DNA of 64,000 bases from Psammoneis japonica. Lineage: Eukaryota. Of this stretch, positions 2,690 to 64,000 are shown in pieces. The translations under genes and the position numbers were made by a program. The notes under the pieces are model-generated. The model was not told where the DNA came from. It did no database searches and saw nothing but the letters and a program-made list of their open reading frames with translations. Each line of letters starts with the position of its first letter. The stretch's first letter is position 1. The stretch lies in NCBI GenBank assembly GCA_008632985.1, contig QPGO01000051.1, positions 1-64,000 on the forward strand. The letters are read 5' to 3'.

Positions 2690-3300
2690 TGGAACCTTTT
2701 AACAAGGATGCCAAAATTGCTTGCAGCTGGTGGTGATCCGGGACTCTGGACCATCAACAATTTCCTCAGTGAGGAAGAGGTGGACAGGATGACAGAGTTG
2801 ATGCATGGGGTTGGTTGTGATCAAGGCATGTTTGGTCCATGTGCTGTCAGTGACCGAATCCCCAGTTCATGTTCATTGTGAGAGCAACACCAAGGTGTGC
2901 TTCAAGATCTCTCTGGAGAGCATTTGTGAAGGTCCTTGCCAGTTCTCCACTTGCAAACACGAGCCAGACCCCCAAAGATGCAACCTCAGTGGCCGAAATC
3001 AGGGCTGGGTTCAAGAGCTTGTGGTGAACTGAAGTTGAACTTGAAGAACACCTGCGACTCCAGCATGCTTTGAAAGGCAGTCCTCCTGCATCTGCCTTCA
3101 CAGCAATGACAACCAAGCTATCTTGCTGGTGTGCTCTGTCTCTCAGATGGTGACACACTGCTCTTCTTTCCAAATCTTGACATTTTGATCATCCCCAAGA
3201 AAGGGACAGCGGCAATGTTCCTCAGTTTGTGCAAGGATGGAAGTTGCAACCCCTGGCCAACCACTCAGATCAGGCCCATTCAGAAAGTGCTGGAGACTGC
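2690..3300 (+). pseudogene. Decayed prolyl 4-hydroxylase-like (2OG-Fe(II) oxygenase) remnant
   Basis: Fragments in different frames: LWTINNFLSEEEVDRM (cf. P4H 'hnFLSxeEcdxL') and DGDTLLFFPNLDILIIPKKGTAAMFLSLCKDG (cf. 'GGETxFP...vkPkkGdAlxF'). Confidence 0.55.
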
Positions 3301-4932
3301 ACCATGGCACTTTTTTTCTGTAAAGAAGAAGTCCTCGGAAGTGTGGTCTTGTTGGAGGTGGAAGTGCAGGAGAAAGTGCGAAGATCACTGTGGTTTGGTT
3401 CAGCATCACCGGCTGCATTGCCTGCAACAGCTGCATCACTCCCCGAGCTGTTTTTTGGCAGAACACCATGGTCAAGAAAAGGCTGCTGCCATGAAAACAA
3501 TGGGGTTGGCATGCCCAACATTCATGTGGGCAATCATTTGGCATGTTGACTCTTGGAGAACAGGAGATCTTGAAATGGCTTGCAAAACTTTGAGTCCAAT
3601 GACAAAGCATGTCCACCAGAACCAAAGCATGAAGAAACAATGAGATTTTGATGTGGAGAGGGGTCACAGTGGGCCCAGCATCTGCTCAGAGAAGTTGAGA
3701 TGATGGGGGGTGGACAAGGTTTGTTCCAAAGAACACAACTGGACAAAATTTGCAATTTCAACCTTTGGTCTCATGCTTTGTGTTGGAAATTGGTGCTGTG
3801 TTAAAAGCAGGCAGGAAATGCACACTGGCCACCTTCATTTGAGCAATGTGTCAAATGGCTTTTTTCTGTCTTAAGGTCCAACAATGTTGCCAAAAGCTGA
3901 CATGCTCACAACATGTGCAAGCATGAGAAGATGGAAAGCAAGACTCAGCAAGCCATTTTTCCAGCTTGAGTCACAGCCACCTTGGCAGCATCTCTGTCAC
4001 AGCAACCTTGGCCAAGGGCTCCAAGCTCCAAAGTGACAGCAACATGGAGCAAGCACTCCACAGAACCTGCAAATCATCCAGCTCCACAAGAATCAGAGTT
4101 GACAACAAGCACACATGCACTTGCTGCACAAACTGCTTTGCTGGTGAACAAAGCCAAGCTTCAGACTGCCACCCAGGAGCTCAAGTTTGTGGCTGCAGAT
4201 GTTGAGCCAACCAGCACTGCACTGGTGTGTTGGAAAAAATGAGGGCATTGTCAAAGTGCCAGCTGCAGCAAAAAACAAAATTGCCATGCTCCAGATTGTT
4301 GTCTTGCAGCAGCTGGCAAGGAGAAATTGGAATTTTGCATTGTGCACACAAGTCACTTTCTGAAGTGAGTGCTTGCATTGACTGCCATGGCCAGTCTCTT
4401 TCCAGAAAGAATGAAAAGTGCTCTGGAGCAAAATGAGAAAAAAGGAAGCTTGCTTCTCAAGTTGTGAACCTTGCTGAGTTGCAACTTGACAGCACCACCA
4501 CCTTGACCAACCAAAGCCAAGAGCAGGAGATTGGCAAAACAAAGAGCAACAGATCTGACACCTCAATGATGCTCTGGCACAAGAAGTGCAAGTTTCAAAT
4601 TAAACTCTGAGCATTGATCTCAGTCAGTTGTGGCTGCACAAAGTGCAGCTGCCAGTCATGTCAACCAATTGAATGAGCAGATTTGAGACTTCAGAGAGGA
4701 GAAAAGGAGCTGCAGGTGTGTGTGCAATGGGGGGTGCTGTTCTTTAGATTGAGTCATGGGGTGGTCTTTTCCAATCACAGTGCACCAGCATTGATGGTTT
4801 GCTGCACCACAATCCCATGGATGCATGAAGTGAGGTGCAGCACATTGCCACACTTGCATCTTTCCAACGTTGTCACATCCGCCGCACATGTTTGGGTGTT
4901 GATGGGAGCTGATGTGCAGACGTGTGCACAAC

Positions 4933-5185
4933 ACATGCATGACTTTGCATGTTTGAGCACCGTCATTCAGACAGCATTGTTGCCCTTTTTGTTGTGCACA
5001 AACAGGGCACATTTTCAAAGAATGTTGCAAACTTTTTGATGGCATTGTCTGGTGTCAACACATTGAACATGCATGACTTTGCATGTTTGAGCACCATCAT
5101 TCAGACAGCATTGTTGCCCTTTTTGTTGTGCACAAACAGGGCACATTTCCAAAGAATGTTGCAAACTTTTTGATGGCATTGTCTG
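4933..5185. repeat. Two-copy direct tandem repeat, period 134 bp
   Basis: acatgcatgactttgcatgtttgagcacc...tgatggcattgtctg at 4933-5051 and 5067-5185, about two mismatches. Confidence 0.95.
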
Positions 5186-5501
5186 TCATTCTGCACAACA
5201 AGTGTGGCACAGCAGCACACTGTCTTGATGCCAATTGGTGATCAGGGAATCACATCCTGGCATCAAACACAATCTCAACCAACCAGCCATGATGAATCCA
5301 GCAATGGCAGCATTGGAAATCACACCCAGTGGGTGCAGACAACTCCATGCTGTGACACCCAGTGCCAGGGGGAGATTCAAGAAATCTGGACGAAACCTCT
5401 GCCTCCAAGCGCGCGTTGCCTGATCGTACCGTACGCACTGTAGACCTCTAGATGCCCTCTTTTCGACTTCTTCAGTTCCCGGAACTATGACGTGACACGC
5501 A

Positions 5502-11697: not shown

Positions 11698-13700
11698 CTA
11701 TGTGAGATAGAACGCAGAGACTGCGTACACCATCCCGATCTTGAACTCTGCCATGTAACATCCGGCACCGCCAAGCATGCCGGGATCCCTAATTCTGAAT
11801 TTCCATGTGCCATTCTTGGCCATGTACTTCATGGTGCCACCACGCACGCCAGTGGCCTCCGAGGCGCCGTTTGATCCCAGCTTACTAACACGCACCAACT
11901 CCGGGCCACTTCCTTCATCATCCGTTTCTTCCGTGCATGAGTTCTCTACCTGAATCTTCAACACGAGTTTGCCGCCAGTGGCACTTGCTGCTTTCCCCTC
12001 CAAGAATGGGCTGCAAAGACGCTTCAAGCTCTTGCTTGGAACAGATGAATCAATCTCCACCCCACCCATTGGCCTCATGCTCTTTGTGGTCAGCTGGTTG
12101 GGAACCAAAGGGCAACTGTCGCAAGTGTCTCCAACGCCGTCGCCATCGCTGTCAGCCTGGTCAGGATTCAAAACCGAGGGGCAGTTGTCCCTGTCATCAA
12201 GAATGCCATCACTGTCAGCATCCCTGAGCTTTAACACAAAGAGACCGTGACCTCCATCGTGCCCCTTCATCATAAAAAAACAGCTCTTGATTCCAAGGCA
12301 TTAGATGGGACAGGCATGAAACAGAACCAATGACCACTTCTGAACTGCCAAGAGCACGATCATGTGCCCAAAGATCTTGCTGCTGTCCACTGTGAGCTTG
12401 GAAATGCAACTTTCCCCAAAAGGGTCTCTGACAACTTGGAGAAGAACCACCCCGACCGGGATTGACATCCTTTGTCATTTCTGTCCGGCGATGGGATCAT
12501 GCACCCACAGCTCTTCTCGATGCAAAAATCCACGGCCTTGAAGTGCAGCATTCCATCCATTGGCACGAAGTCACCTGGCAAAGAACTTCTTTGACCACAA
12601 CAGATGTCCTTCACCATCTTTGTTTCTCAAGTGGTGGGATCATGCACCCAAAGCTCCCATCCATGCACTCCATCAGTTGCAGAGACATGCAGCTTTCCAT
12701 TCGTTGGCACTAAACCACGAAGATAAAAACTGTGTTTGCCTGGCCTGATCTTGACCACATTTGTTTCGTTGTTGGTGGGATCATGCACCCAAAGCTCTTG
12801 TCCATGTGTTCCATCATCAGCAACGAAACACAGCTTTCCATCAAGTGGTGTGAGCCTGAATGGAGAAGAACCACGCCGGCCAGGATTGACATCCTCTGCC
12901 ATTTCTGTGCGCCCGCTGTTGGGATCATGCACCCAAAGCTCTGGTCCATGCATTCCATCATCAGCAACGAAATGAAAAATTCCATTCCCTGGGATCAATT
13001 CCCCCGGGCTGATGTCCTTGACCATCTTTGTTTCATTGTTGGCAGGACCGTGCACATCCAAAGCTCTCGTCCATGCAATCTGCGTTCGGCGGAGAAGTGC
13101 AGGCAGCTTTCCATCAACTGGCAGGAAACTTCCTGGATGAGAATCATGCCAACCGGGATTGACATCCTTTGTCATTTCTGTGCACCCGCCAATCAGATCA
13201 TGCACCCAAAGCTCTCGTTCATGCAGTCCATCACTGGCCGTAAAGAACAGCTTTCCATTCATTGGGATCAATTCCCCCATTTCAGAACTTGTCTCACCCG
13301 GCCCAATGTCCTTGACCATCTTTGTTTTGCAGTTGGTGGGATCATGCATCCAAAGCTCTTGTCCGTGCAATTTGTGGTCTGTGGAGAAATGCAGCTTTCC
13401 ATCAACCAGCGGCAAGTTTCTTGGACAAGAAGCAAGCCGACCAGGATTGACATCCTTGACCATCTTTGTTTTGTCAATGGTGGGATCATGCATCCAGAGC
13501 TCAGAGCTCTCATCCATGCCATCCATCATCAGCCACAAAGTGCAGCTTTCCACCCAGTGGAGTGAAGCTGCATGGAGAAGATTCACCTCCTCCACCTGGA
13601 TTGACATCTGCGACCATTCTGCAATTGCCGCTGATGTGATCATGTGCCCACAGCTCCCTCCCATGCATCTCTAAACATCTGCAGAAAAATGTGCTTTTCC
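11698..13700 (-). pseudogene. ELWxxDGT-type repeat (beta-propeller) protein with C-terminal thrombospondin type-3 Ca-binding repeat; 5' part decayed
   Basis: About 9-10 repeats of ~47 aa (HGxELWxHDPT...MVKDVNPG...GKL[H/C]F.ADDG) spread over several frames; [38 protein letters not shown] in ORF 11698..12273. Confidence 0.85.
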
Positions 13701-14079
13701 CTCCAGGGTGCAAACCAACACTCAACACATGCTTTTGAGCAGGCTTTTCATTCAGATGTCTTGCATGACATCATTGCTGGACACTTGCTCAAACACTGCA
13801 AAATTTTCTTGCAAGAGCCAGTCTCTAATTTGGAGCTGCAAGTCGTGTTTGATGGCTGCAAGCAACTGGACGGAACGACGCTCCTTCTCAATCACAAGGT
13901 CACAGGCTCCATGTTCTTTGTGGAGAACATCCCTCTGCAGACTGAGCTTGATTCAGAAACAATGACGGCTCTCAAGAGCAATGGCTTCTTGCAAAAGATT
14001 CAAAGCTCAAAGCACCCCACCTTGCCCAATGCAAAAAAAGTGTCTGTCACACTGGCTGATGATGGGAGCTCCTTGATCA

Positions 14080-14840
14080 AGTCACACCTGTGCAATTTCC
14101 AACAAAGAGTCCAACTCCTCCTGCAGCAACAAATGTGCCAACACGGGTGCTGACCAAACATCCCACATTGCCTCCATCGTGCACAAGCAGAGAGGTGTGC
14201 AAGGCTGAAAGTCAGGGCAGCAGCATTTTTGTTGATCAGGAATGCAGACCTCCCTTTGTGGAATGGCAAAACCTGCAATGCCTGTGCCACAGCAAGCAAT
14301 GGGAACACACTGCATGTTGTTGCATGTGGTGCTGGAACAATGTGGTCTCTCACATGTTGTCTGTTGCTTTTGGATGGTGTTGCCATGTGAATCAATCCAG
14401 CTGGGGTCACTGTCAGAATTCTGCGGCATGTCTCAACCCCTGAAATTAGAGCCTGAAATGAGTGAATGCTCCAAATGCATTTAAGGATGTTGTGGCAAGG
14501 AGCTCTGCTGTGCATGCATTCTCTCATTGCTTCAAAACAATCACGCAACTTCTTGGAACCGTTTGCAGCACAATCCACAGAAACCCAACATTTGGGATTT
14601 GTTGCATTCTTGTGTGGATGCAACCACAAATGTTGTGGGAATGAATCCTCTGTGATGATCTTTGGAAAGGAGCAACAAACTGGCTGTGATGGACTGTCGA
14701 AGCTTGTCAAAAGTGAGTGCTTGCAGAAAAGGGTCACACTGCTCTTTTGCACAATTGCAACCAATCACAACTGCAACGGTTTTCACATGTTTTGAAACTG
14801 CCACAATTTCTTCCTTCACAATCGTTTGACCTTGCATCTC
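14080..14840 (-). mobile_element. Possible decayed MULE-type transposase / SWIM zinc-finger remnant
   Basis: LLLLSKDHHRGFIPTTFVVASTQE resembles the MULE 'vdxxgxxxpvaf' segment; QQKCCCPDFQ...LCLC resembles a SWIM CxCxxF...C motif. Heavily mutated, tentative. Confidence 0.3.
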
Positions 14841-15149
14841 ACCGCCACAACAAAGTGCAACTCGCCTGCAGAAACTTTTGTGTCATTTGTTGTTTCCTCA
14901 TCACAAGAGCTGTGCTGTTGGGGCAAGCTGTTCCACACACTGCCTGCTGTTCTCCTGCTGCACACTGCATCCTCACTGTTGTTCCAATGCAAATTCAATG
15001 TCGGGTCTCTTGTTCTGCAACATGGCCAGGTTTTCAGCCAACAGCACATCAGCTTGCAGCCAACAAAGATTGGGCCGGCTTCAAACAAGAACAAGATTGA
15101 TGATGAACTCTTGAGGCAATGGTCCTTCATGATGCCTTTGCAGACCAAA

Positions 15150-15975
15150 CCAATTGTGCGATGCACAGGTGACACTCAAATGATCAACATTGTGAGAGAA
15201 AGAATGCAAGAAGAATCTGTGGTCTTGCCACAGCAGCCTCCATGGACCCAGCCCCAATGGACTCTTGATGAGTGCAGTGTCATTGAAGCAAAGGTCAGTT
15301 GTGCTTGGCAGAGCAGCAGACACTGCACTTTGTGAAACGAGGCAGTGCAAAACGATGACTCAAAACGACCCTCCTCACGCTAAAAAGGGCAGCCCTGCAT
15401 TGGACCCACAATGTTCTTGGGATGCCTTGATGCCACCAAACTCCAGCTCAGCTGCATTTGGGCACATCTGAACAAATGCAGAAAGGGATTGTGCATCATC
15501 CCATCAAGTTGATGTGTTGTTGTTGGGATCTGAAGCAGAAATTGCCAACTTTCGAATTTGTGCCAGTTGTCCAAAACAATGATTGACCGCAAATGCGTGA
15601 TTTTTCCACTCCGCTGATTGCAAGAGCAGCACAGTTTTCTCCAGAAGCATTGTTCCCAGTTGCTTTCCTGATGACATTACGGAAGGAGTCTGAAGTGCTC
15701 TTGTTGGTGAAGAAAATGTCAGCGATGCGTTCTTGGTTGAGCGATTCATTGTTGGGCACTTCATTGCACCCCCTGCCACAAACAGCCACTGTCTTTAAAT
15801 CATCCAAGGAAAGACAGGTGAATGTCTTTACCTTGCATTCCATTGGAAGACTGTCAAACACAGCAACAAAAGTGGTGTCTTCATCATCAACTTCATTGTT
15901 GTTGTCAAGACGCTGGCACTTGTGGCACTGGGTTTTGGCAGAAACATCCGGTGGCAACTTGCAAGTCATCATCAA
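15150..15975 (-). pseudogene. F-box protein pseudogene, copy 1
   Basis: FDSLPMECKVKTFTCLSLDDLKTVAVCGRGCNEV matches the F-box pattern (LPxExxxxIFxYLxxxDL); frameshifts downstream. Confidence 0.7.
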
Positions 15976-16367
15976 GAGACTGGACGACTGTGTTGATCAA
16001 ACAAAGGGCAGTTGACACTGCCTTTCTCAAACAGCAAGTGCAACACTCATCTCTCATCCCTCAACTTCCAACTTTTTGGGACTCCCTCAAACGTTTGACT
16101 CATCCGACCAAAATCGAAGGAAGCATCAGCAAGAGTGCACTTTGTGTGTTGAGTGTGCATCTGTTTGTGTGTGTTTTAAAAACATCAGATTGCTTTTGGC
16201 AAACTGGATGCAATCGTGATCATTGGCATCATTTGGACACCAGAGTGTGGCCACATTGATGGACAAATGTTTTCAAATGAAGAACGGAAGTCAAACGAAC
16301 ATGGGTTCTTTTCCTGCAACTCAGTGCTGGCAACTCCAAACTTCAGAAGTCTCTCACTTTCTCAGCT

Positions 16368-17132
16368 GTGATTGACAGAGCAAGTGTTGTCACCATGTCT
16401 GCTTGCCTTCTCTTCTCCATGTTTGAGATCACATCTTTGCTTTGATGAAGAGCTCAGCCGTCCTTGCTTGTTTTCTTGATTTTCTGACATGTCTTCATGA
16501 AAATCTCAAAAGTAAAAGCGCTCTGCATTGAGGAGTCAAAGGGTCTGTCCATTTGCCTTCCCATCCTTTTGACCATTTGTGCTGTCATCCAAGTTTGGTT
16601 TTTGAAAAAGACTCGCGAGACCAGTCTCCAGTGTGAACGCAAAATTGAATTGTTGAGTTGCCGCCTCAAACTTCAGGAGGAACTGCAACAGCATGGCAGC
16701 ACTTCTCTTCAAGGAATGGTGAATCGTCTCAAGCTCAAACAGGAAACTTACAAAATGTTGCATCTCGTTTTGACAAACGTTGTCAAAGACTCAGCCAAAC
16801 ACCCACCCTGCAGCGAATGGAAACTTGAGGATTTAAAACATGAGAGATCCGTTGGTTTGATGCACCGTCACCACAAGTGTCGCAAAGAAATCTGTGGAGA
16901 GTGGACCCTTGAAAAAGCTGAAATCCATCAAGAGCACAAGGGAGCCATTTGCAAGACATTGAGCAAGTTTCTCAAACGTGCTGAGGATGGATGCCCTCAT
17001 GGACCAAAGGCAATTGTGTCAAAAAAGACACAGCATGCATTTCGAAACCACGTTCAGAAAAAGAAAGCCGCCAAGGAAATGGGGGCCAAAATGCTTGAGC
17101 TCGTGCAGAAGATGCAGGCCTTGAAATTGTAA
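16368..17132 (+). pseudogene. Mutated paralog of the 18458..19513 membrane-anchored coiled-coil gene
   Basis: Shares KISKVKA, VWFLKK, one LQxERKIE...GSTSLQGMVNRLKL unit and the C-terminus; Tyr-free; 5' region disrupted. Confidence 0.75.
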
Positions 17133-17223
17133 AGAACAAGGTGAGCATGTGGTCAGTGGGCATCTTCTGGCACCCGACTCATTGTGGTGGTGCTGCTTCT
17201 GCTTGAGCAAGCAAAAAGCCATC

Positions 17224-18033
17224 ACGAGTGCGATGCTCCGGCGATGCTCAAACGCTCAAGATTGCCCAAGAAACAGCACAAGAAACTCATTTGATCATGC
17301 CACAGTTGCCCCCATGAACTCTCAAAAACAGAGTCATTGAAGCAAATGTCAGTTGTGCTTGGCAGAGCAGTGTCTGCTCTGCAAACTGTGAAAGCGGTGC
17401 AGTGATTTAAAAAAAACCTCCTCAGGCTCAAAAGGGCATGAGAGCAGGTGCCCAAAAATTCTCAGGACACCTTGATGCCATTTAGCTCCAGCCCAGTTGC
17501 ATTTGAGCACATCTGAACAAATGCAAAAAGGGATTCTTCGTCTTCCCATCGAGTTGATGCGTTGTTGTTGTTGTTGGGATCTGAGTCGGAAATCACCAAC
17601 TTTCGAACTTGTGGCAGTCGCCCAAAACCAAGACTGCGCAAGTGCAAGATTTTTCCACTCTGCTGATTGCAAGAGTGGCACAGTTTTCTGCAAAAGCATT
17701 GTTCTTGGTTGCTTTCCCAACAGCGTTGCAGAACAAGTCTGAGGTGCTCTTGTTGGTGAAGAAAATGTGGCGGCAATTCGTTCTTGATTGAGCGATTCGT
17801 TGTTGCGTGCTTCATTGCACCTCTTGCTGCAAACAGCCACTGCATTTAAGTTCATCCAAGGAAAGATTGGTGAATGTCTTTACCTTGCAATCCATTGGAA
17901 GACTGTCAAACGTGGCAACAAAAGTGGCATCTTCGTCTTGGGTTTCATCAAGACGCTGGCGCTTGTTGCGCTGGGTTTCGGCTTTGTCACCCGACGGCAA
18001 CTTCAAGAAAATGGATGAGGTAAATCGAAACAA
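17224..18033 (-). pseudogene. F-box protein pseudogene, copy 2
   Basis: FDSLPMDCKVKTFTNLSLDEL then frameshift to AVAVCSKRCNEARNNESLNQERIA; collinear with copy 1. Confidence 0.7.
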
Positions 18034-18457
18034 AGTTTAATTGATGCTGCCTTTCTCAAACAGTGACCACAATGCTCGGCAGCTCTCAAACTTACAACTT
18101 TTTGGGGTTTGGGGGTGTCGCGCATCTCATCACAGTCGCGAGATTCTCATTCAGATCAGCACCCCCCCTCTGACGTTTGACTCATCCGACCAAAATCGAA
18201 GGAACTGACAGTCCCAGTACCGGTATCAGAAGAGTGTAGTTTGTGTGTTCTATATATGTATTTGTTCTTGGATATTAGTGTAATTAATTTTCGGCAAACC
18301 GAGAGCAATCGTGGCCAATGAGCATGGTTTAGACAGAGGAATTTAAATATATTAATGAACAGATGTTTTTAAAATAGAACGGACGTCAAACCAACACGGA
18401 TTCTCCTGCTCGATCCACGCTGATAAGAACACAAATCGTCTCACTTTCTCTGTTGTT

Positions 18458-47179: not shown

Positions 47180-47589
47180 GCTTAGGATTCGCTGTGTTTG
47201 TGCAGTGGTATTTTATTGTCAGAATAGCTCCTCTTTGCTCCTTCGCAAAATTACAAACAAATTTGTGACCGTCTGTTGGGAGCTTTTATGACAAACAACG
47301 GCGAAACTGGTCGTGACCCTCCGATCGAACGTGTCTCTCGATGACGATTTATTTTACCATGCACCATACAACATGACGCAATAAGGGCTTCAGTGAGTGT
47401 TTCGTTGGTCGTGACATAAATCAAAAAAATGTGGAGTCATGCAAGAGTCATTATTTTTGTCGGGCAATTTTGTGCAACACACTGAACGGAAAATGAGAAT
47501 GGTCATTCTGGAAGTCCTCGTCATCATGACATTTTCGGGACATCGTAATTCTAGGGGCTCATTTCGTCTCTCTGCTAGAGAGAGCTAAA

Positions 47590-50500
47590 GTGATGAATTG
47601 TGGACAAGAACAACTCTCCAAGACCAATGCTTGCAGTGCCGGTCAGCACCTCCTCAACATCATCAAACCGCTCCTCGCCAGCATTAAACTCCAATTTCAC
47701 AGCATGGGTGCTGTCAAAACCAGGACACTTCTTCGTGCGAGTGGGGTGCCACCACCACCACCATGTGATTGAGTCAGCTTCATGCTCTCAAAGTCAGAGG
47801 AATCAAGTTTTGCCCAGCTGTCAATGCAGGGTTCTTTCAACGATCCAATCATCAAAAAATTGAGCACAATTGTGCAACACAGTCCTTTCCAAGGACTCCA
47901 TCTTGTTCTCCAACTCATCCTGCAGGAGGGATTCGCTCCAGTCTCCATCCCGCTCTTCTGATGACTGCAACTGCAGCGCAAGGTCAAACAAGACAATCAC
48001 TTGAAAGACAAAAAAGAACTGCTGTTGTTTGCCTGGAAGTTGTCAACACAAGCTTCAAACTTGCAACTGTTCTTGCAAACCAGATGGTTCACTCCAAAGA
48101 ATGAGACAAGCTGAAAAATGAGCGAGATTGGCAACAATCTGATCTGAGCACAAAGAGTCACCAAATCCACCACGTCATGATCTTCAACATCTTCTCTTCA
48201 ACACATTGGTCTCTCTTGAGGTCTGACATTCCCTTGGTTGCCTCTTTGCAGTCATCCTTCAAATCGGCAAAAAGCTGGCGTGCACCGTCCATTGTCAGAG
48301 CAGCTGATCATGTTGTCAAACAAGTGTGTCACACCATGAACACCCACTTTTCACAAAACACTCCACACAATCATGACAGAGTCTCTCTTTCTTGTCCTCA
48401 CTTCCCCAACCCCAGACCAGATCCATTGTCAAACCATTGATTGCTTTGGGAGTCAAGTCAAAGAGCTTCTTTTCTCTGCAGCACGACCACTCGCACGACT
48501 TCCATGCAGTCAGGTGAAAATTCACAGTGGAAGAATGACGCTGACTTCTTTGCATCACAAATGATGCTGTCATCATCCCTCATGAGTCCATGATGAGTCA
48601 TGATGATGTCAAGATTGGGGCTCTTGACAAGTGTTGTGAGGAGGGGGGTGCCTCATGCCCCACTCTTGTCCATGCCACATGGATGCAGACAAACATTTGA
48701 CTTGCCATGCTGGTCTTGAATGTCACTCTTGCTCAGGAGGGCCAACTGCAACTTGTTGCCCAATGATCTGGAAATGCACCTGTCCTTGATGCACTCTCCA
48801 TCACCAGGCAGCTGTGGACAATGGTGTGCCACACACCTTGCCTTGAGGCTCAGCTTCCAACAATTTGCCAATGTTCTTCTTTTTGGTCTTGGGAGCTTCA
48901 TTGGCCAATCTCTTAATTTCACACATGTGTCTCCAATCGTTGCAGTGGAGAACATTGGTGCAGCAGTGGACACATGCTCCACTGTCTCAGAGCTCCATTG
49001 TGCCATTTCTCCATGCACTTGCATCAACAACTTGTGTCCAATGTCACATTTGGGTCTTCTGCCCTCATTTCCTTGATGGAGTCCAACACCTGCTGCAAAT
49101 CCAGGGTGTCTTGGTGGAGGTGTGGATTGAGAGTCAGTGTCTTCCAGCTTCCAGTCACTCTTGTTCCACCTCTTCAGCTCTTCCATCACTGCTCTGCAAT
49201 CTTCAACCACTGTTTCTTACATTCTTGGGTTGCTCAGACCTGGGAGTCTCTCTTGACAAACTGGCCAACAGCTCAGTGGCCATGCCTTTGTGACATCGTG
49301 TCACAACACATGCAGAGCTCACATGAATCATTGTTGAAGTGGTTGATGTTCATTTGCAGCCACAGATTGTGGCTGGATGACCCATTCAGTTCAGTGCCCT
49401 GCTTGCCAGGTTGCAGAGGGATTTTTCACCCACATGTGTCAGAGTTCTTGTCTGATGACATAAAGAACAGGAAATGCTCCTTCCATGTGCAAAGTTGACA
49501 ACCCATGCAATGGCTTGTTTGAACTTTCAAAACTTTTTGCCTCGCAGTGGCTCAGTCATCAAGTCTCCAAGCACGTCATCAGCAGGACAGGCCCAGCATT
49601 GCACTCTTAGATTGCCTTCTTCATCTGGTTGGCAACAAAGAAATGCTGAATGCCGAGTGCTCTCAACCACTTCTTGCTGGCACTTTTGCTCCCATGGCTC
49701 CAACAACTTGGACTTAAAGGACTTGTTTGCCTTTTTCCAGGTTCACACATTGCCTGCACAGGTTGGGATCAATGCTCACCAGCATGTCAACCAACACTCC
49801 TGTGATCTTTGCCACAATCCATCTGGCCATTGTCTGCATGGGTGCATTTGGCACATCTGTGCTCATGACATTGCACTTGGCATCAACAATTGCCATCACA
49901 AATGTCCCTTCTGAGGATGCTGGTGGGGTGGCTGACTCATTTTTGCCTGGCCATTCTTGAGTTGGTTTCCCACCGCAACCCATTCTTTGCCCTTTGGTGC
50001 AACCATCATGTTTCTTGACTGGGAACATCAAGGCTGCTGTCGCCTTGGTCCTTTTAGTCAGAGTCATGTCCTTGACTGATGCTGGTGCAAAGCACACTTG
50101 GTCATGCAGTCATGTTTCATTTCTTTCGCTGAGGTGTCATGCCCCCTCTGGCCAAAGAATGCTTTGAGGCCTTCACGCAGCAGATGCTGCTGGGCAAATG
50201 AAATGCCCTCACCTGGTCAGAGTTGGCAGTCAGTCTTGCACACAAAGGGTGCCATTTCCACTGCTGTCTCCACATCACAGTTGACACCATCCTCTTGATT
50301 GGGGCTCAAGTTTGTTTTTTAAATGACGGCAGTGCTTGAGCTTGTTTTGCTCTTGTTGAACTTTGTTTTCTTTGTGCTTGCTTGATTTCATGTTCAAGAA
50401 GGATGATGCAGCACAGCTTGTGCTGCTCCTGCTTGCTCAGCCAGGCATGTCACTTGTCTCTTTCCCATCTGTTGTCTTCATTGGGTTGGTCAGCATCTTG

Positions 50501-53500
50501 TGATGCTGCAGCTTTTTTTGTGTTCCTCATCAACATCTTGATGATCTTCATTTTCTTCATTTCCACAGTCTCTGTCTTGTGCTTCTTGATTGCTGTGCTG
50601 TTGACTGGGACTGAACAATTTCTTCCACAGCCAGAATCTCATTTGCTTCTGCATGCTCATCATTGCTTTGAGTCTGCTTCTTTTTTGTGATCTTCATCAT
50701 CAGACTCGGTCACACAGTTGACATTGTTGTGATCATCTTTGCAACTGCCCTCCTTTCTGTTGCTTTCATTGCTGTCACTTTTGTGGTTGTCTGCTCCTGC
50801 AGTCCACTCAGCATCTTGTGGATTGTCTCAACATTTGCACGTGAATTTAAATTCCTTGAGATGCCTTGTTGTTTGATGGCCATCCTCTCAACTGCCTGCA
50901 CATGCACATCAGTCAGGGGTGCAAGGTGCACTTGCAGGGTTTCAACAGCTTGCCCATGCGCAGGTTCACAGCACAGTGTCCACCCTTGGGCAGATCAAAA
51001 TGTGGTTGCAGGCACATGCTGTCAACACCACGTGCATCCACAGTGTTTGTCAGGTTGTTCTCAATGCATGAGAAATCACAAATTTCCCAAACTGCTGAGC
51101 TGGAAGTGTTTGCAGTGATTGTTCCTTCATTGCACAACAGTGTGTGGAATGTGAGTGTCAGAAATCCCTTCATTCTTTGAGCACATGTTTGCACATGGCA
51201 GCATTCTTGATGACAGCTTGCTTGCACCACATCAACTTGGGTGTCATCTTGCATGGCACATGGTGTGTGGTGGCTTGAGTTTGCTCCTTGATGATCTGCA
51301 TGCTCAGCTCAACTTCAAGCACATGGTCTTTTGCATCATGGAAATCAGTTCCAGATTTCTTGAACTCAGAATCACACTCAACAAAGTCAATCTGCTTGAA
51401 CAGGGCTGTGTTGTTCTGTTGGAGAATCATGTCCAGCACTTCATGAATGTCATCATGTTTCTTGGACCTCAGTCTCATTCTTGATTGGCACTTGATTGTC
51501 TTGTCCCCATGCTTCCATGGTGTCAATGCAGAGGATCATGACTTTTTCTGCTTCTCGCATGTCTCAGGTGGTGTGACCATCATGCTGTTCCTCTCATGGG
51601 AATGGCACCATGCATGCTTGGCCTTGCCTTTTGCTGCACGTCTGTTGGTGGACCCAAAATGGCTCCCATCCTGTCCACCCCATCTCCCAGGCATGGTGCA
51701 GCACTTGTCCAAGGTGTCCACTCCTGTGCTGGTGGATGGCACAACCTTGACCTTCGTCAGATGCACATTGTTCACTGGTCTCTGGCTTGCTGCCATGCTG
51801 AGGGTTGTAGAGCCATTGGCAAGGATGAGTTCATCTGACTCAGTTCCCACACTGGCTTGGCTCAGGATCATCTCTGGACTCTCTCTTCATCCAGCTGGCA
51901 TCTGTGCCATGTGCACTTCTTGCTGCTTTGGCTTTGGCTTGATCTGTCAGATCTGGCAGCATCAGTGCTTGCACTGTTGCTGTCCATGGATGAGTTGTCT
52001 TCATCTTGTGTCAGTGGATGACTCTGTCCCTTGGCACCCAGTTTCTTCCTCTGGTGTTCCTGAGCCATTCATTGTGCACAATCTTGTTCTTGCACTTGCA
52101 GCCAGGGGACTTGTGGTTCAGCTCACCACAGGAGCAGCAGCACACCACATGGTTGTCTTGGTTGCCTGTCTGTGCATGACTTCAGTCAGTTCTTCATGTT
52201 GTTGGACCCATCATCACTTCTCTTGTGGCTGTCTCATTCCTGTTGTTTGAGCGCGCATTGCTCCTCTTGCCATGACATTTTCAAAGATTGTCATCTTTTG
52301 GATGATCCAGCAGTGCATCCATTGCCTTGTCTGGGGTCTTTGGATGCACGTCCTTCCCCAGGCTGCAATCTCTCATAAAACTCTTCTTCAAGCTCTTGTG
52401 AAAGCAATCATTGCTGTTCTCCACAAACTGCTCTTCTCCATGAATGGGTGCATCATTCATGCCTTGTGCGCGCTGCTGCCTTTGGGTCAAACTGGACAAC
52501 TTGATGTGCTCAATGAACCCATCCAGCATTTTTCTTCCCAGACTGTCACTTGTGGCAACTCACTTTTTGTTCTTTTGAATCTTGACAGGTGGTCATTCAG
52601 TGATTTGCACTCTTGTTGTTTCACTTCCAGCATGTGCTTCAGCAAGTCAAACAAAAGGAGGGGCTGATTCATCTTGAGCAGTGTCTCTGCCAGATCATCA
52701 TCCCCCCCAATGCTTGAGTGATTGGGGTTGCCTTGCACTCTCTGCTTCATCAGCTTGGCAAAGCAGTCATCCAGGATCTTGGTGAATGCAGCAATCTTGT
52801 TCTCTTTGAGCTTTTTCACTTTTTTGTTGTGGTCATGGAGCTTGATCTTGCGCTGGTGTTCCAGCTCTTTTTCTTCTTGATGTCTCATCCACATCTCAGT
52901 GTGCGGCAGTCTGTCTTTGATTTGTTGGTTGGCAACTCTGACTTGTGTGCATCTGATGCAGGTTTCTTTTCAATGAAATCTTTGCACTTCACATCTTCTA
53001 AGGATCTTGCCAGATGCAAACCTTGGTCACATTCCTTTTGAATGCAACTGACAACCTTTGCCTTCATCCTTGATGCCTCCACATGTTGAACTGTGAGCAT
53101 TGCTGTTTGAAGTGACAACCAACTTCATCTCAGTCAGGCTGAAAGCTTTTCTTCAGGTTGGTCTTGTTGTTGTTGTTGGAAGACTTGTGACCTCTGTCAC
53201 CTCTGCCTTGGTTGCATTGTTGGCCTCTGCCACTTGCTCTGCATCCTCCTTTGCTGCTCACAATGCAGAGTTTGAACATTGGATGAAACTGTGTGAAGGC
53301 AGTTGAAACAAGTGCCAGATGATGTGCTTGTGACTCTTTGGAGCAAATGTCAAACCAGCAAGTCCTTGTTGTCAAAAGGAAGTCCCACAAGGCTTCCTGT
53401 GCTGCTGGTTGCACTTGCTCTCACTGGCTGCTTTGGTGGCTGTGATTTGTCTGGAAGTCATCAACACAAACTTCAAACTGCCTCACAACATGACAGGTGC

Positions 53501-55340
53501 CCACAAGTGATGCAAAATGCAATTCTCACAAACCAAATGACTCACTCCAAAGAGCAACACAAACTGCTGAAAGGTGAGTGCTGAGATCAGTTGCAACACA
53601 ATCCAAATGCAAGCAGTTGTGATCTGGGTGCTCCAACACAAACACAAATGCATGCACAGGCACATTTGACTCAAAGCTCTGGAAGAAAGAGCTGGGCTTT
53701 GACCTGCTCTTTTGCGCAAGAGAGGAGGTTTGGTCTTGCAAGCACACAAGTGATGTGCACTGCCCGTGGCACTCAATCTTTGAAGCTTTGCAGCTTCAAC
53801 AACCAAACTTTTTTGGTGGTTGGTTTGCACCTGATGTCAGCCTTCACTGCAAGCCCACAAATCATGAGTCAACAACCTCATGTCCAGGTGCTGTGATGGC
53901 CTGTCAACATGGGCTGAATTTGAGTTGAAAATGGAAGGTCATCTTTCTTGTGCAAGCCATGGAGTGAGGGCACATTGTGCTGAACAAAGCAAAATTTTCT
54001 CATGCGCAATCACAATTTTGAAAGCACCTGCACCTTGCACAACAAAAATCAAGCTTTTTGTCATTTTTCAGATTCGCCAAAAAAGTGCTGACACAACCAA
54101 AATTGTCCCACGCAGTTGTGTGCTTTTGTCATTTCAAAATCCTTTGACATTGCCATGACATCATCAAGCAGCTGAATTGAAAAGTTTGCCCCAAGAAATG
54201 GCTGATGCTCACAGCACTGGCTGCATGCAGTGCCAGCATGCCAAGTTTCAAGAAAGTGGGATGGGGTCAACTGTGCCAAACAGGGAGCAGCAACACTGCC
54301 CACAAGTCATTTGATTTGCACAAAGGAAAAGAGGCAAATGATTTGAAAGGTGGCTCCTCCAGTCAAATGCTTGATCGCAGCCACACAAAATGCTCATGCT
54401 GTCATTTTCTCGGTTTGTGTCATTGGAAATTCTAACTGTTTCTGTGTCACCCACATGACACCCAAACGCTTCCTCTTAAAGTGTGCTCTTGTTTTGCATT
54501 TTTGTCAATGACACATCAGTTGTGCATGGCTCTAAAGATTTTTCTAACAAAATGTTTTACAAAAAGCAGCTTGTCAGCTGCAAAGCAGCAAACACGTGTG
54601 TTTGCAATTGCAAAATGCCAATTGCATTTGCCAACAAACCAGTTTGCAAACTGCTTTGCAAATGAGCACAAAGCAAGTGTGCACACCCCACACAGCTTCC
54701 CCCTGTCAGGGGAAGCAGAGGGGGTGCTGGCCTGCACTGAGGTGTGACAAAAAATTTTTTGAATGAAGAGCACAAAACAGCCCCACTCTGCCATCATGTG
54801 TTGTCCATTGTGAGATTTGTGTGCATTTGAAGTGCAAGCCATTCAAGCTCAAATGTGAACCCTGTTTGCAAACTTCCATGGCAAACTGCAAACACTGGTT
54901 GTGCACAATGCACCAAATGAAATCTCCAGTGTGGGCCAATCTTCCAAGGGCCCAGCTGCTGCACTTGAAGCCCATGCCATCAGCACCTTGGCGTGAGCAT
55001 GTTTCTTTTGCCCAAGAAACAAGTCTGCAACACAGGTGGGCAATGAGCCACTTGCCATCAAGAGACAACAGAGATGCACAGACCATTGTCAACCTGTTGT
55101 TGCTTGTGGGATTTTTTGGATGCTTGGTTTCATTCAAAAGGGAGTGAAGAACACACCACGGTGCCATGATGAAGAAAGCAGATTGCAGCAGAGTGGGGCA
55201 GATGTAGACAGGAAACCATCAGCTGTTGTTCATCCTTGGGGTTCATCGGTGAACAACACACATGGTTTTCTGTACATGACATGTGACACCATGAGAGATG
55301 TTGCATCATTTTCTGGCACAAAAGCTGTGGAATGTGTGAT
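47590..55340. other. TpA/CpG-depleted hypermutated domain 3 (most saturated)
   Basis: Roughly 20 TA by eye in ~7.7 kb, very few CG; normal composition resumes at ~55340-55440. Confidence 0.92.
49490..53260 (-). mobile_element. Decayed diatom-type Ty1/copia retrotransposon body (gag-PR-IN-RT-RH), internally deleted
   Basis: Gag-like KENKIAAFTKILDDCFAKLMKQRVQGNPNH; integrase-like IDFVECDSEF and DSMCLQP...GGHCAVNLRMGK; RT KKHDGCTKG...GKPTQEW...SATP...IVDAKCNVMSTDVPNA; RNase H end ...LGDLMTEPLRGKKF. Order is copia-type; LTRs not identified. Confidence 0.85.
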
Positions 55341-59465: not shown

Positions 59466-60524
59466 TTACAACTCTTGAAGATTACCAAACATCTCGAATC
59501 CAGTTCCATGCCAGCATAGGGTCGTCTTTGTGCGAACTCGAAAGAAGCGATAAAACGAGTCTGTGCTTTGCACTTTCCAGAAGAATCGGTGTTCCCCCTC
59601 CAGCGCGTCAGTCGCAAACTGTTCTGCGGTATAATTCTTAGTACCGACAAAAGAATCTTCGTCCTCCGAAAACAATCGTTCAATTATGTACCACGTGTCA
59701 TGGTCGAGACCGCCCTCGTGCTCGTGAAGTGCCTTCCACTCCTTACCATCGGTCGATGCCTCAAAGACCCAGGGAGCTTTTAACCCCCTGCAACATTCAT
59801 GTCGAAGAGAGTAGTGTGTTGGACAGAGTGATGCATCTCTTAGCTCAACTATAGCTGTCCATCCATCATCTCCACCGTGGCATGGTGTGAAGCCAGGATG
59901 AGCAAGACCAATATCAATATCTTCTTCGGAAAGTGTTCCACACTGTGGACGATGCTGGACAAACATGGAGCGGCGCAACTCAGACCCAGCATTGTATCGC
60001 TCTCCCCTTTTTTCGTCGTCCTCTGTATCACATATCTCGTCGCACCATCCTCCAACATAGACCTTACCGCTCACGTGGGGATTACGGTATGTTTCGCGCC
60101 CGTAGTCGGTGCCGAGCATGTAGAGTGCACCACGACTCTGGGGATTCGGTGGGCATGGAAACATTGGCGGGTCCAACCTGCTGGCAAGGTCGTCCAAGGC
60201 GTAGAATTTGGCTTCATCGCGAAGCCTGTACCATAGGTCTTTGTTTTCACGGAACGGACGAGGCAGCATGTTGTCGATCTTGCCCGTTCTCAAGAACTCG
60301 AGAACGTACTTGAACAACTCAGGATCGCGGTCGATAAAATAAATCTTTCGTCCCCACTGGTCTTGTCCAACGACACCCCCAGGAGTCATGTCGTTTGTTG
60401 TGTTTCCAAAGCGAGCTGCAAAATACGAGCCATCAACGCGTGTGAGCGTCGAGAGGTATGTTTCAAAGTTTGATCCTCCGACTCGCAATACAACGATGGG
60501 ATCGTCACGACGGTCTTGACTCAT
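59466..60524 (-). CDS. KCTD-type BTB/POZ protein with C-terminal galactose-binding/F5-8-like domain
   Basis: LRVGGSNFETYLSTL, YFIDRDPELFKYVLEFLRTG, EAKFYAL; C-terminal PTHYSLRH...WVFEASTDGKEW...YRFFRV...GFEMFG. Confidence 0.88.
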   Translation of the reverse strand: MSQDRRDDPIVVLRVGGSNFETYLSTLTRVDGSYFAARFGNTTNDMTPGGVVGQDQWGRKIYFIDRDPELFKYVLEFLRTGKIDNMLPRPFRENKDLWYRLRDEAKFYALDDLASRLDPPMFPCPPNPQSRGALYMLGTDYGRETYRNPHVSGKVYVGGWCDEICDTEDDEKRGERYNAGSELRRSMFVQHRPQCGTLSEEDIDIGLAHPGFTPCHGGDDGWTAIVELRDASLCPTHYSLRHECCRGLKAPWVFEASTDGKEWKALHEHEGGLDHDTWYIIERLFSEDEDSFVGTKNYTAEQFATDALEGEHRFFWKVQSTDSFYRFFRVRTKTTLCWHGTGFEMFGNLQEL

Positions 60525-60899
60525 GATTTCAGAAACGATGCTGTTGGGAAGAACTCCAGGCAAAGGTGTATGAAGGGGATTGATATGTGTGAGAGTGTGT
60601 TGCTCGGTTGACTGAGTGAGGCGATCAGTTGAATTGCTCTTTTTCTCTCGAATGTGAATGTCATTGTCGACGGTAGCGGATGATGATGATGATTCTTCGC
60701 GATTCGCGATCTTTCATGAGGGGTCCCGGCCGAGATCCCGCAGTGGTGGTCTGTCTGTACGACATTCCTACACAAATTATGTGCTGACGTCTTTCCATAC
60801 GATCTAACTACAATACAATAAGATACGCGTCTGTCCTTGTCACAAGCACGATCTCAGATTATTTCAAGATTGAAGATGTTCCTCATTCTACCCCATTGT

Positions 60900-63720
60900 T
60901 GTCGCTAATGACCATGTGGTCCGCAAGAAGACACATGCGAAAGGATGGAGGCAATGAAGAATCCAACAATCAACATGTCAATGCGTCTGGGGACGAGGTG
61001 CCGTGCGGTGTCAAGACACGACCTTTTCAGGTTGAATGCCCGGATGGTTGGTTCAATGAGCACCGCAGCATGATTGGACCAGCGAATTGGATCGTGCACA
61101 ATCCATGCTGACGCGCCTTGTCGACCGTTTTGCTTGAATTTCTCCATGCTAGGGAGGTTATCAGAGCCACACAATCTATCCCACTTTGCACGCTTGTTGC
61201 GTTTCTTCTGCACTTTGCTGCACTCAAGTCAAACTCTCGAAATCCGCGCAGCTCCAGCTCTGTGTCTGCGGCAGCAGAGCTGCGACAATCGCAGCATCAC
61301 CTCACTTGTGTCATGCAGCATCAAAATGTCTTCTGATTCCCATGGCATTGAACAAATCAGGTTGTGGCATCCTGCTCCTGGGGACTGTCCGCTGTGGCGC
61401 CGCTTCCAGATTCCGGTCGCACAGCTGGTGGCAGGGAAGAGCACGTGTGGAGCCACTCTGGATCAATCATTGCTGCCATGTTCTGCTCTCAAGCTTTCAC
61501 CCAACCAAGCAACAGCAGATGACCGTCTCACACTTTCACTTCTCGCAGCAACTGCGCGACTTTTGCTGTTGGTCACCCCATCTTCCACGCTGTTCGAGCT
61601 CTCACCACAGCCAATTCCCCATTCTCCTCTGTCTCACCAAGGCTTCCACTCTGATCTCCCAAGGAGGAGGATGACAAATGAGATCTCTTTGGCCACACGT
61701 TCAGCTCCTTCGGTCAAAATCCTCAGTTGGGCCTTGTCCTTGTTGCAGAACTCAACATGTGTTGGAACCGTGTGGAATTGAAAAAACACCAAGAAGAGAC
61801 AAGAAACAACCGCAAACAGAAACAAGGCTTGGTTCTTGGCCCCACTCAACCACACGCGGCTTCCCAAAACTGCAAACAAATGAACCAGCATCCCGGCCTG
61901 GACAAAGCACGTCCCAATGAAAAGAGACGTCCCAATCACATTGGCTCGTGTTTGCCAAACCAGGTTGTCAGAACAGTGATGAAGAAGAAGTGCCACAAAG
62001 AGGCCGACCTCGTAGCTGATCATGAAGCTGAGGGTGAAGTTCGCCTTGAAAAAGAAGACCGATTTTGTCAACCCTGCTGCCACAATCAGAGCAAACACCA
62101 TCAAGTGATGAAAGAGGAGCCTTGAGGTCTGTTTGCTGAATGTGAAGCATCCCAGTGGCGCTGAGAAAATCCTCCGAGCACAGACGGGGGTCTTTGATGT
62201 TGTCAAAGTTCAGAATGGCAGAGAATGCAAAGGACGCCACACCAGCTGGCATGGTTTCGCCGCAAAAGACAATCCAGGCATGAATCGTCGTTCAACCATG
62301 ATGCCAACGAAAAACTCAACATTGTCTGCACTCGCACAAAGTTCCTTCAGTGCCCTTGTTGCCTCTGATGAAGCTCTGAAGTCTTCAAAGCTCTCCAGTC
62401 GAGGGAGATGGAAATGCTCCCGATGGTCATTGAAACCTTGCATCCCTTGAGTTTGCTCATCCTGGATCGTTTGAACTGCGACCTCCTTTGGACAAAAAGG
62501 AACATTGAACGCTTCGATGCTCCCCATGGGAGTGCAATGGAAGGCTCACAAAAAGTCGGCGGGATGATGTTGGGAGTGCATTTCAGGCTTCCAAAGAAAG
62601 TCCAGCCAGGGGCCCTGTGCTCTCTAACTTTCAAACTCAGATTTTCTTGCCACGACTTGTCTGCAAGTTGTGCAGTTTCCCGCCAAAATCCTCAATCCGT
62701 TGGGCCGCGCCTCTTGCACTGCTGCTCATTCTTTTGAAACACTTGCCTGTCCATGGAATGTGATGATGCTGTGGCCTCTTAAAGCCAACAAACCCAAGCA
62801 AGATTGCAGTGACACTCCAGCAGTTAGAAGGGCAAAGGAAGGCCTCCTGCTCTGCAGCCACCAAGAGGAGCACCACATCATGTGTCAAGAAGTTGGTGAC
62901 TTGCTGCTGATGCAAGTGGCTTTCTTGGATGTTGGATGCTGACTGGGCTGTTTTTTGGTGTGACAAACATGCGACAAAAGTCGACACATGATGCGCTCCA
63001 GCCGAGTTTCTTCAGCCCCTGAAAAAACCTGTGTGGCCTGCTCTGAGCCATGAGCCACATGCAGTGACTTGCAAAGCACAGCAAAACAACACACAGGTCC
63101 ATTGCCGGTGGCTCAATGTGCGCCGCGACCTGCAAGCAGCGCGTCCCATTGATGTGCAGCTGCGACGGCCCAAACCCGGGTGGCGCCCCCCCACATGCAT
63201 TTGACAGAGTGTCTCATCATGATGCTGCCATGATCTAAAATTGGTGGTTGTCAATTGGTGATTGTGCATCAATGACTGCATGAGCAGCTGAAACTCTGGT
63301 GCACAAGGCAGAATTTGCTGAGGTCGCTGTGTGAAAAAAGAGCTGCTCCACATTGTGACGTGGGCCCACAGAATTCCATGTGCAAGCCCCGCAGTGTGAC
63401 AATTTGGTCAATGGACCACCTGTCTTCAATGTCCAAAGCTTGACATTTGGCATTTTTTCAAATCTGCCTGCCGACGCCACTCTTTTGAGACACGTTTGAG
63501 GGTGCTGCTGGTGGCTGCAAAAAATGCCAAAAGTTGTTGAGTTGATTTTCCAACAATTGCGCCACAAAATGACACACAAAATGTTGCCAAAGCTATGCAG
63601 AAATGTGAGAACATGACATGAGGCACATGACAAAAACTTCTGTGTCACAGCCCAGTGCTGCCAAGGCATTACGTGTCAGCAAAATCACAGCAGCTGATGA
63701 TTTTTTTCAGGATTGCACCA
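60900..63720. other. TpA-depleted domain 4 (CpG only partly lost)
   Basis: TA nearly absent from ~61190 to ~63660 while many CG remain; TA-rich again from ~63745. Confidence 0.85.
60905..63350 (-). pseudogene. Decayed heme peroxidase-cyclooxygenase family gene followed by a multi-pass membrane region
   Basis: QGFNDHREHFHLPRLESFEDF...ALKELCASADNVEFFVGIMVE matches the PGHS/alpha-DOX pattern 'FNeYRxxFxL....FEel...LxxLYgdvdxvexyxG' with Tyr->His/Cys; hydrophobic ORF 61634..62206 downstream; multiple frameshifts. Confidence 0.7.
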
Positions 63721-63997
63721 CAGACCCCATGGACGGGTTCCAGTCCTAGGTGGGACTCCGTGTGACATTGGGCCCGTAGAATTCTACGTGCGAGCTCCGT
63801 AGTACGAGAATTTAATTAATGCATATATTTATCTTCAACATCAAATAAACTGCCAAGTTTGTGGTACAATTATGCCTCTTGCCACTCGACGTTTTTGCAA
63901 ATGCGCCTGCCCTACGCGATTCTTAAGACATTATAGAATCGCGCTGTAACAAAAAATGTCAAAAGTTGTTGGACGGATCGCTCAATAAGTGTACCGT
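63350..63997. repeat. Diverged direct repeat pair (~63350-63570 and ~63760-63997)
   Basis: tgggccc..agaattc... blocks at 63361 and 63769; caaatctgcctgcc/caaatgcgcctgcc; aaaaatgccaaaagttgttg/aaaaatgtcaaaagttgttg. Confidence 0.8.
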
Positions 63998-64000
63998 NGC

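Follow-up and report, generated by a model that had tools for sequence, protein, structure and literature searches.

The genome of the diatom Psammoneis japonica harbours blocks of DNA from which the dinucleotide TpA has been nearly erased by a TpA-specific transition, which is faster than, and locally independent of, the decay of CpG, and which acts after the insertion of the sequences that it hits. In this process a C:G pair almost certainly takes the place of the T:A pair of TpA, and either TpG or CpA results. The window under analysis is a stretch of 64,000 nucleotides at the start of contig C52 (QPGO01000051.1), in a genome of 91.4 Mb, and a two-state segmentation on TpA delimits four blocks within it (161-5426, 11948-18020, 47587-55204 and 60907-63746). 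Its features are collected in Table 1.

Table 1. Features of the 64,000-nucleotide window.
Feature	Position	Strand	Remarks
Domain 1	161..5426	.	TpA survival 0.06, CpG survival 0.22
Domain 2	11948..18020	.	TpA survival 0.10, CpG survival 0.38
Domain 3, late stage	47587..55204	.	TpA survival 0.06, CpG survival 0.12
Intact BTB/POZ-domain gene adjoining the focal domain	59469..60713	-	Untouched control
Focal TpA-erased domain	60907..63730	.	TpA survival 0.09, CpG survival 0.60 vs background
Pseudogene of ~920-aa haem peroxidase (cyclooxygenase-like), with hydrophobic C-terminal part	61721..62704	-	Pfam PF03098, E 1.5e-9
Old decayed MITE relative within the focal domain	63340..63700 (limits approximate)	+	Many 70-87% matches genome-wide; 74-75% identity to the young element over 61-65 bases
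Young unmutated copy of the 390-bp MITE	63732..63997	+	Cut by N at 63998; 20 TpA and 17 CpG all intact inside erased domain

The focal domain (60907-63730) had been described, in the original prediction, as keeping many CpG with almost no TpA, and the motifs quoted there are found exactly at 61111, 61397 and 63121. It holds 10 TpA (observed/expected, o/e, 0.06) and 94 CpG (o/e 0.52), compared with background o/e values of 0.54 and 0.99, respectively. Background windows of equal size contain at least 74 TpA (mean 104), for which a count of 10 has a Poisson probability of ~4e-32. The description is thus right for TpA, of which ~9% is left, and only partly so for CpG, which at 60% left is itself depleted by ~40% relative to the background (P 3e-8). 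The right edge of the domain is only apparent, as an unmutated MITE was inserted at 63732 and TpA-poor DNA resumes behind it, up to contig position ~64600.

The gain of TG+CA in the domain (0.0585/bp) matches the loss of TA+CG (0.0584/bp), so that an ordinary starting composition is enough to explain it. This mass balance speaks against a reading in which the TpA deficit is a by-product that follows passively, and arithmetically, from 5mC deamination or from the starting composition. CpG decay can indeed lower the TpA o/e indirectly (Duret and Galtier, via PMC3829696), but in simulations where 40%, 88% and 100% of the CpG in background DNA were converted, the TpA o/e fell to 0.49, 0.45 and 0.44, never near the observed 0.06. 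Moreover, the TA sites themselves change to TG or CA in alignments to known ancestors, with no tie to changes at neighbouring CpG. The original prediction that TpA loss is not a by-product of this kind is borne out, and we give the by-product reading a practically negligible probability.

Short-read contigs from run X1 (depth ~55), which is possibly the source sample or a close strain, differ from the assembly at 13 of 1841 bases in 61192-63031 and at 1 of 2233 in neighbouring genes; they carry the same erased sequence, so the domain is no assembly artefact. Among the 40 differences listed out of 356, there are 32 inside domains: 20 oppose CG to TG/CA, 2 oppose TA to TG/CA, and 10 are of other types. 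Listed CG-type differences affect 9 of the ~77 CpG of the focal domain and 1 of 347 in gene-bearing stretches (P 1e-6), which indicates that CpG there is still decaying while TpA is exhausted. In domain 3 the figure is 9 of ~40 CpG (P 0.18 against the focal domain). At 60786 and 60797, between the BTB/POZ gene and the left edge of the focal domain, TG and CA in the assembly face TA and CG in run X1; to judge from these two sites only, the domain may be creeping toward the gene.

The peroxidase pseudogene within the focal domain has one stop, frameshifts and an internal deletion, and its homologs (P0001-P0003) share 36-60% identity with it; one member of their cluster bears the source name prostaglandin-endoperoxide synthase 2. 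Among the residues conserved in these homologs, the pseudogene keeps 1 of 8 Tyr and 5 of 14 Arg, compared with 110 of 156 others (P 0.002), and four of the lost Tyr, which are encoded by TAY codons, are now Cys or His. No intact parent was found in the genome, where the closest own peroxidase reaches 27%, and therefore the ancestor of the domain is known at the protein level only. Likewise, no DNA match to 60907-63300 appeared in the genome search (best 40 of 149 candidates scored) or among the loci compared, a word-index protein search with the pseudogene fragment gave no match, and the ESM Atlas returned no usable match to the hydrophobic frame.

Over 264 kb of the contig, 17 TpA-low blocks make up 28% of the DNA, with a TpA o/e of 0.02-0.06 compared with ~0.55 between them. 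TpA survival in these blocks lies within 0.03-0.11, and CpG survival within 0.11-0.75. Segments low in CpG, found independently, overlap TpA-low blocks in 15 of 15 cases, and no CpG-only domain was seen in the 264 kb. As the original prediction had pointed out, domain 3 is poor in both dinucleotides (TpA o/e 0.03, CpG o/e 0.13), and 17224-18050, at the right edge of domain 2, is intermediate (TpA o/e 0.10, CpG o/e 0.63); what sets the focal domain apart from domain 3 is its CpG (odds ratio 4.9, P 5e-21), with no difference in TpA (P 0.28). From the edge of the blocks to their core, CpG survival declines from 0.65 to 0.22 and TpA survival is flat (0.06-0.08), a gradient that is informative for CpG only, since the block edges were set by TpA. 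In several flanks TpA is absent over a kilobase with CpG at the background level. A two-process simulation at a ratio of 7:1 reproduces both the focal domain (TpA 0.03, CpG 0.59) and domain 3 (0.03, 0.14).

A MITE family with a known starting sequence provides the rates. The element, of 390 bp, has terminal inverted repeats and a 4-bp target duplication that is exact in 27 of 29 full copies. A 24-mer of it without TA or CG is kept by 310 copies, and the first 100 in contig order were analysed, a choice that is blind to the TA/CG state and biased toward copies with little other change. In these copies 1249 of 2745 TpA had changed and 337 of 2650 CpG, with 104 private transitions and 64 transversions per 26204 other sites; at AA, 26 private events occurred over 69 positions. 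The fates of TpA were TG (696), CA (543), CG (10) and all else (27). Changed CpG, likewise, gave almost exclusively TpG or CpA. More TpA than CpG had been lost in 89 copies, with the reverse in 8 and a tie in 3; one copy (L108) had changed 25 of its 29 TpA and none of its 28 CpG. The pooled TpA:CpG hazard ratio is ~7, with values of 6.4-11.9 in all six subfamilies with at least six copies, and of 2.9, 8.6, 8.0, 7.0, 7.1 and 5.3 by bin, where the lowest bin is inflated by CpG changes common to subfamily members. A site-aware estimate gives 45 (36-58), but a handful of hot sites, and doses that lie at the bound of the fit, dominate it, and ~7 is therefore taken as the robust lower figure. That TpA is lost faster than CpG and saturates first, as originally predicted, agrees with these data, and the contrary outcome, a proportional scaling of the two losses, was tested for and not found.

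Both losses are nonetheless correlated across copies (rho 0.78) as well as across domains (rho 0.59), which indicates common targets, and at a given TpA dose CpG change shows overdispersion (chi-square 151 on 98, P 5e-4). Hence, the claim that they are uncoupled stands for rate and chemistry, but not for targeting. The direction of change (TG or CA) is as concordant between copies as expected by chance (0.644 vs 0.651), and such independence places the hits after insertion. Copies are bimodal in TpA loss, with 44 below 0.3, 8 between and 48 at 0.6 or more. This pattern partly follows subfamily, which fits waves of transposition, and two subfamilies are split internally, given which there may be an on/off element. 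As regards the original proposal that the domains form a time or dose series, the subfamily structure, the edge-to-core CpG gradients and the strain differences lean to time, although time and methylation dose are not fully separable.

Two further observations concern the surroundings of the copies: most of them, unmutated ones included, sit within TpA-erased DNA, and in the set L095-L184 the flanks of heavily hit copies have a higher CpG o/e than those of barely hit ones (0.73 vs 0.54, P 0.003); CpG (methylation) that is still dense may go with a stronger mutator. For a one-shot burst the evidence is mixed: the copies are bimodal, but CpG climbs in step with TpA and strands are uncoordinated, so that the data neither favour nor eliminate such a model.

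In a tandem peroxidase pair on contig C41 (intact L055, dead L057), 59 of 71 TA have become TG or CA and 9 are kept; for CG the figures are 96 of 132 and 29. A>G changes affect 43% of the A after T compared with 2-4% after A, C or G (3.8% at AA), and C>T changes affect 36% of the C at CpG compared with 2-4% elsewhere (6 of 330 at CpA); TG has turned into TA at 2 of 331 sites and into CG at 3 of 331. The apparent TpA:CpG ratio is only ~1.4 in this old pair (TA 9/71 and CG 29/132 kept), which we tentatively put down to a floor of resistant sites. On contig C82, L061:277-2586 and L056:160-2394 form a reciprocal mosaic, in which the erased gene differs between the copies and the middle is untouched in either; here targeting follows the dead part, not the duplication.

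In the sense strand of the three dead genes of these pairs (L055/L057 and L061/L056), TA became TG 60 times and CA 29 times (P 0.001), compared with 81 to 79 for CG. A transcription-strand bias is possible, but context is uncontrolled on three gene pairs alone, and we thus do not claim it. Silicon-transporter pseudogenes were tried as additional sense-oriented pairs and set aside, given that the two erased copies could not be aligned and that the remaining five are not erased. This family counts 24 matches in the genome (best E 2e-208), as befits a diatom, and it includes a 1511-aa open frame with three silicon-transporter domains in tandem (G000:C38:226311-230342). Separately, the near-identical duplicates L058/L060, L185/L186 and L221/L222 (at least 99% in two aligned pairs) show zero change at TA or CG; some of them may be second haplotypes or very recent duplications.

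Another group of readings invokes selection, biased gene conversion, descent from a master copy already mutated, or artefacts of assembly or base calling. In their favour, TpA loss partly follows MITE subfamily, but copies agree in the direction of change no more than chance allows, the DNA that is hit is non-coding or dead, and the short-read contigs show the same erased sequence. Besides, only TA and CG change, and they do so in opposite GC directions. We regard all these readings as very improbable.

TpA sites are far from equivalent, and in the MITE their rates span more than 100-fold. The A of TAY changes ~4.7 times faster than that of TAR (0.77 vs 0.17, P 5e-4, MITE copies), and over the 17 domains site survival is 0.004 for RTAY, 0.053 for YTAY, 0.048 for RTAR and 0.226 for YTAR. 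In five gene/repeat pairs, a pool that left out a sixth pair with a shared decayed partner, the direction predicted by the TAY rule won by 46 to 20; RTAR alone went against it, with 15 TG to 12 CA. Hits fall on both strands, independently per copy, and there is no same-strand clustering within copies (0.514 vs 0.491, P 0.13), a pattern that a burst on single-stranded DNA would leave and whose absence counts against the deaminase scheme proposed below.

These local rules also weigh on a coupled explanation, in which an error-prone polymerase (eta- or iota-like) fills patches at T:G mismatches derived from 5mC and places G opposite T. It would account for the sharing of domains and copies by both losses (rho 0.78), and for the CpG-richer flanks of heavily hit copies. 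However, polymerase eta has a WA signature, in which A>G changes gather around the initiating lesion and affect AA as well as TA, and AA is hardly hit either in the MITE copies or in the C41 pair. TpA hits beside a converted CpG number 249, compared with 247.3 expected, and strands are uncoordinated. Moreover, the rate of a TpA site drops with the CpG count within 15 bases (rho -0.43), and TpA changes outnumber CpG changes by ~4 to 1. On this evidence the polymerase route seems quite unlikely.

We favour instead a scheme with two separate transitions acting on the same silenced DNA, that is, transposons, dead genes and their flanks. One turns CpG into TpG or CpA, most simply through deamination of 5-methylcytosine, a cause suggested by the DNMT5-dependent CG methylation of diatom transposons together with the DNMT genes of this genome. 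The other, ~7 times faster on pooled sites and more at the best ones, would be down to a floor, the resistant YTAR sites, at a time when CpG is still being lost, and the focal domain would represent a younger or edge-like stage. The likeliest chemistry would be that of a candidate TadA/ADAT-type deaminase working at silent chromatin on the A of 5'-TA(Y)-3', with replication past inosine fixing the change; as every hit destroys its own target, TG/CA would be a sink. Taken as a whole, deaminase included, this scheme seems to us slightly better than an even bet.

Adenine deamination of the TadA/ADAT type, by analogy with engineered TadA, is suggested by the strict 5' T, the purity of the transitions and the YAY > YAR hierarchy, and we hold it to be about as probable as its opposite. 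We know of no natural enzyme pathway established for the targeted A-to-G editing of chromosomal DNA. Against the analogy, TadA-derived editors accept CA, which is not hit in Psammoneis japonica. Among such editors, ABE3.1 and ABE8e-YA act on A>G in DNA with a preference of YAC or YAY over YAR (PMC12528748); they are engineered and work on displaced single strands, whereas the process described here needs a 5' T, and the likeness is one of motif only.

The genome encodes ADAT2, a TadA-like gene, two ADAT1/ADAR-like genes and metabolic deaminases. Four family searches, run exon by exon and giving counts that are lower bounds, turned up neither a further TadA/ADAT paralog nor a fusion of a deaminase with a chromatin-reading domain. 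The ADAT2 (G000:C26) has an Asn at the position that was matched by eye to the one tied to DNA editing, and ordinary ADAT2s generally have Asn at that position too. The two ADAT1/ADAR-like genes are separate (L209-L212, G000:C40 and C79). At L189:313-1785 (G000:C79), a 2OG-Fe(II) dioxygenase and a cytidine/TadA-fold deaminase domain share one frame, which may belong to nucleobase metabolism, and two decayed OTT1508-like deaminase fragments (L220 and L236, G000:C92) lie in or at the edge of TpA-erased DNA; of this family only fragments, and no intact gene, were found.

The lesion could sit on the A or on the opposite T, both being compatible with the sequence. In the second case, a T in RTA context that is oxidised or alkylated would pair with G, or a mismatch glycosylase would fix C. 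A change of TA to TG on one strand is TA to CA on the other, and therefore all the counts fit this reading equally; 5-formyluracil and O4-methylthymine do pair with G, and the genome has 27 matches to C5-methyltransferase-like genes, many of them of unassigned role. Nevertheless, the TpA context resembles the preference of TadA-type enzymes, and to our knowledge no enzyme has such a thymine specificity, so we judge a thymine lesion unlikely. N6-methylation of the adenine of TpA in silent domains, followed by deamination or misreading, is another route that would give A>G transitions limited to marked domains, but no positive evidence for it emerged and ApT without a 5' T is not hit. Eukaryotic 6mA lies mostly at ApT in active genes, and we deem this route improbable.

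Two observations concern DNA methyltransferases. A chromodomain frame adjoins a DNA methyltransferase frame at L202 (G000:C34), resembling the chromodomain-bearing DNMT4 of diatoms (PMC9998398). A repeated element carries a C5 DNA methyltransferase gene at L199 (G000:C301), L200, L201 and L205 (G000:C297); in L199 and L200 this gene has a TpA o/e of 0.03-0.09 and a CpG o/e of 0.78-0.84, with long open frames, and it looks like a mobile or viral DNMT that has so far gone through TpA loss only.

RIP, the premeiotic process of ascomycetes that depends on RID (DNMT4 class), offers a comparison. As described with RIPCAL, it also ruins transposons and duplicates through dense, dinucleotide-specific transitions. 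However, RIP changes C to T at CpA and creates TpA, whereas the process in Psammoneis removes it (C>T at CpA 6/330, TG to TA 2/331). RIP also needs duplication and hits both copies, while here L055 is intact beside the decayed L057, and MITE copies of 97-100% identity can be untouched. In Phaeodactylum, CG methylation is DNMT5-dependent and lies on transposons (PMC9998398, an article with no occurrence of 'TpA'). This methylation, followed by deamination of 5mC, would explain the CpG half of our results, with its CpG-specific C>T and the nine CG-type strain differences listed in the focal domain, but it cannot remove TpA (floor 0.44 vs 0.06).

The closest likeness is with Bigelowiella natans, in which TpA-specific hypermutation of integrated NCLDV and virophage DNA is described in the main text of a preprint (Mettrop et al., bioRxiv 10.64898/2026.01.13.699255). 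According to this text, two viral inserts took 231 of 302 de novo changes, which lay almost without exception at TpA and arose in some lines only, at a rate ~1000-fold over baseline per generation; ADAT2 is proposed as a candidate, with an Asn at a position tied to DNA editing, and the authors suggest that transposons may be targets too (10.64898/2026.01.13.699255). As in our case, A>G/T>C changes at TpA only give TpG/CpA, and blocks are hit and genes spared. Single-copy DNA can be hit in B. natans, and the focal domain may be a comparable case. Unlike those viral inserts, the focal domain contains a peroxidase pseudogene of host type along with MITE copies. Here a diatom is the host, MITEs and pseudogenes are hit together with their flanks, 28% of 264 kb is affected, and erasure is near-complete. 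Psammoneis blocks show, in addition, the slower decay of CpG and the TAY preference. The main text of the preprint, supplements and their mutation list apart, has no occurrence of 'CpG', 'diatom', 'context' or 'trinucleotide', and the top-ranked part of larger result sets in our literature search held no report of TpA hypermutation in diatoms. Judged on that main text, this 2026 preprint on two viral inserts is the one precedent found, to which the diatom case adds the comparison with CpG and the TAY motif.

The series of at least 310 MITE copies contributes dated stages, a sequence motif and a measure of how fast TpA goes compared with CpG, and both the search for the enzyme and the link with DNA methylation are directly testable in a group with knockouts (DNMT5 in Phaeodactylum). 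In practical terms, TpA content dates very young insertions and CpG content older ones, and transposon ages and pseudogene divergences are inflated in such genomes. A natural DNA adenine deaminase specific for TAY, if true, would be of interest to the builders of base editors. As a more tentative proposal, to which we give somewhat less than an even chance, a natural DNA adenine editor directed to chromatin may serve diatoms as a permanent defence of the genome; it would read silenced chromatin rather than duplication, edit 5'-TAY-3' on both strands faster than methylated CpG decays, and spread into flanks ahead of CpG loss, with about a quarter of the Psammoneis genome rewritten; together with B. 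natans, it would point to a shared or convergent stramenopile/rhizarian pathway.
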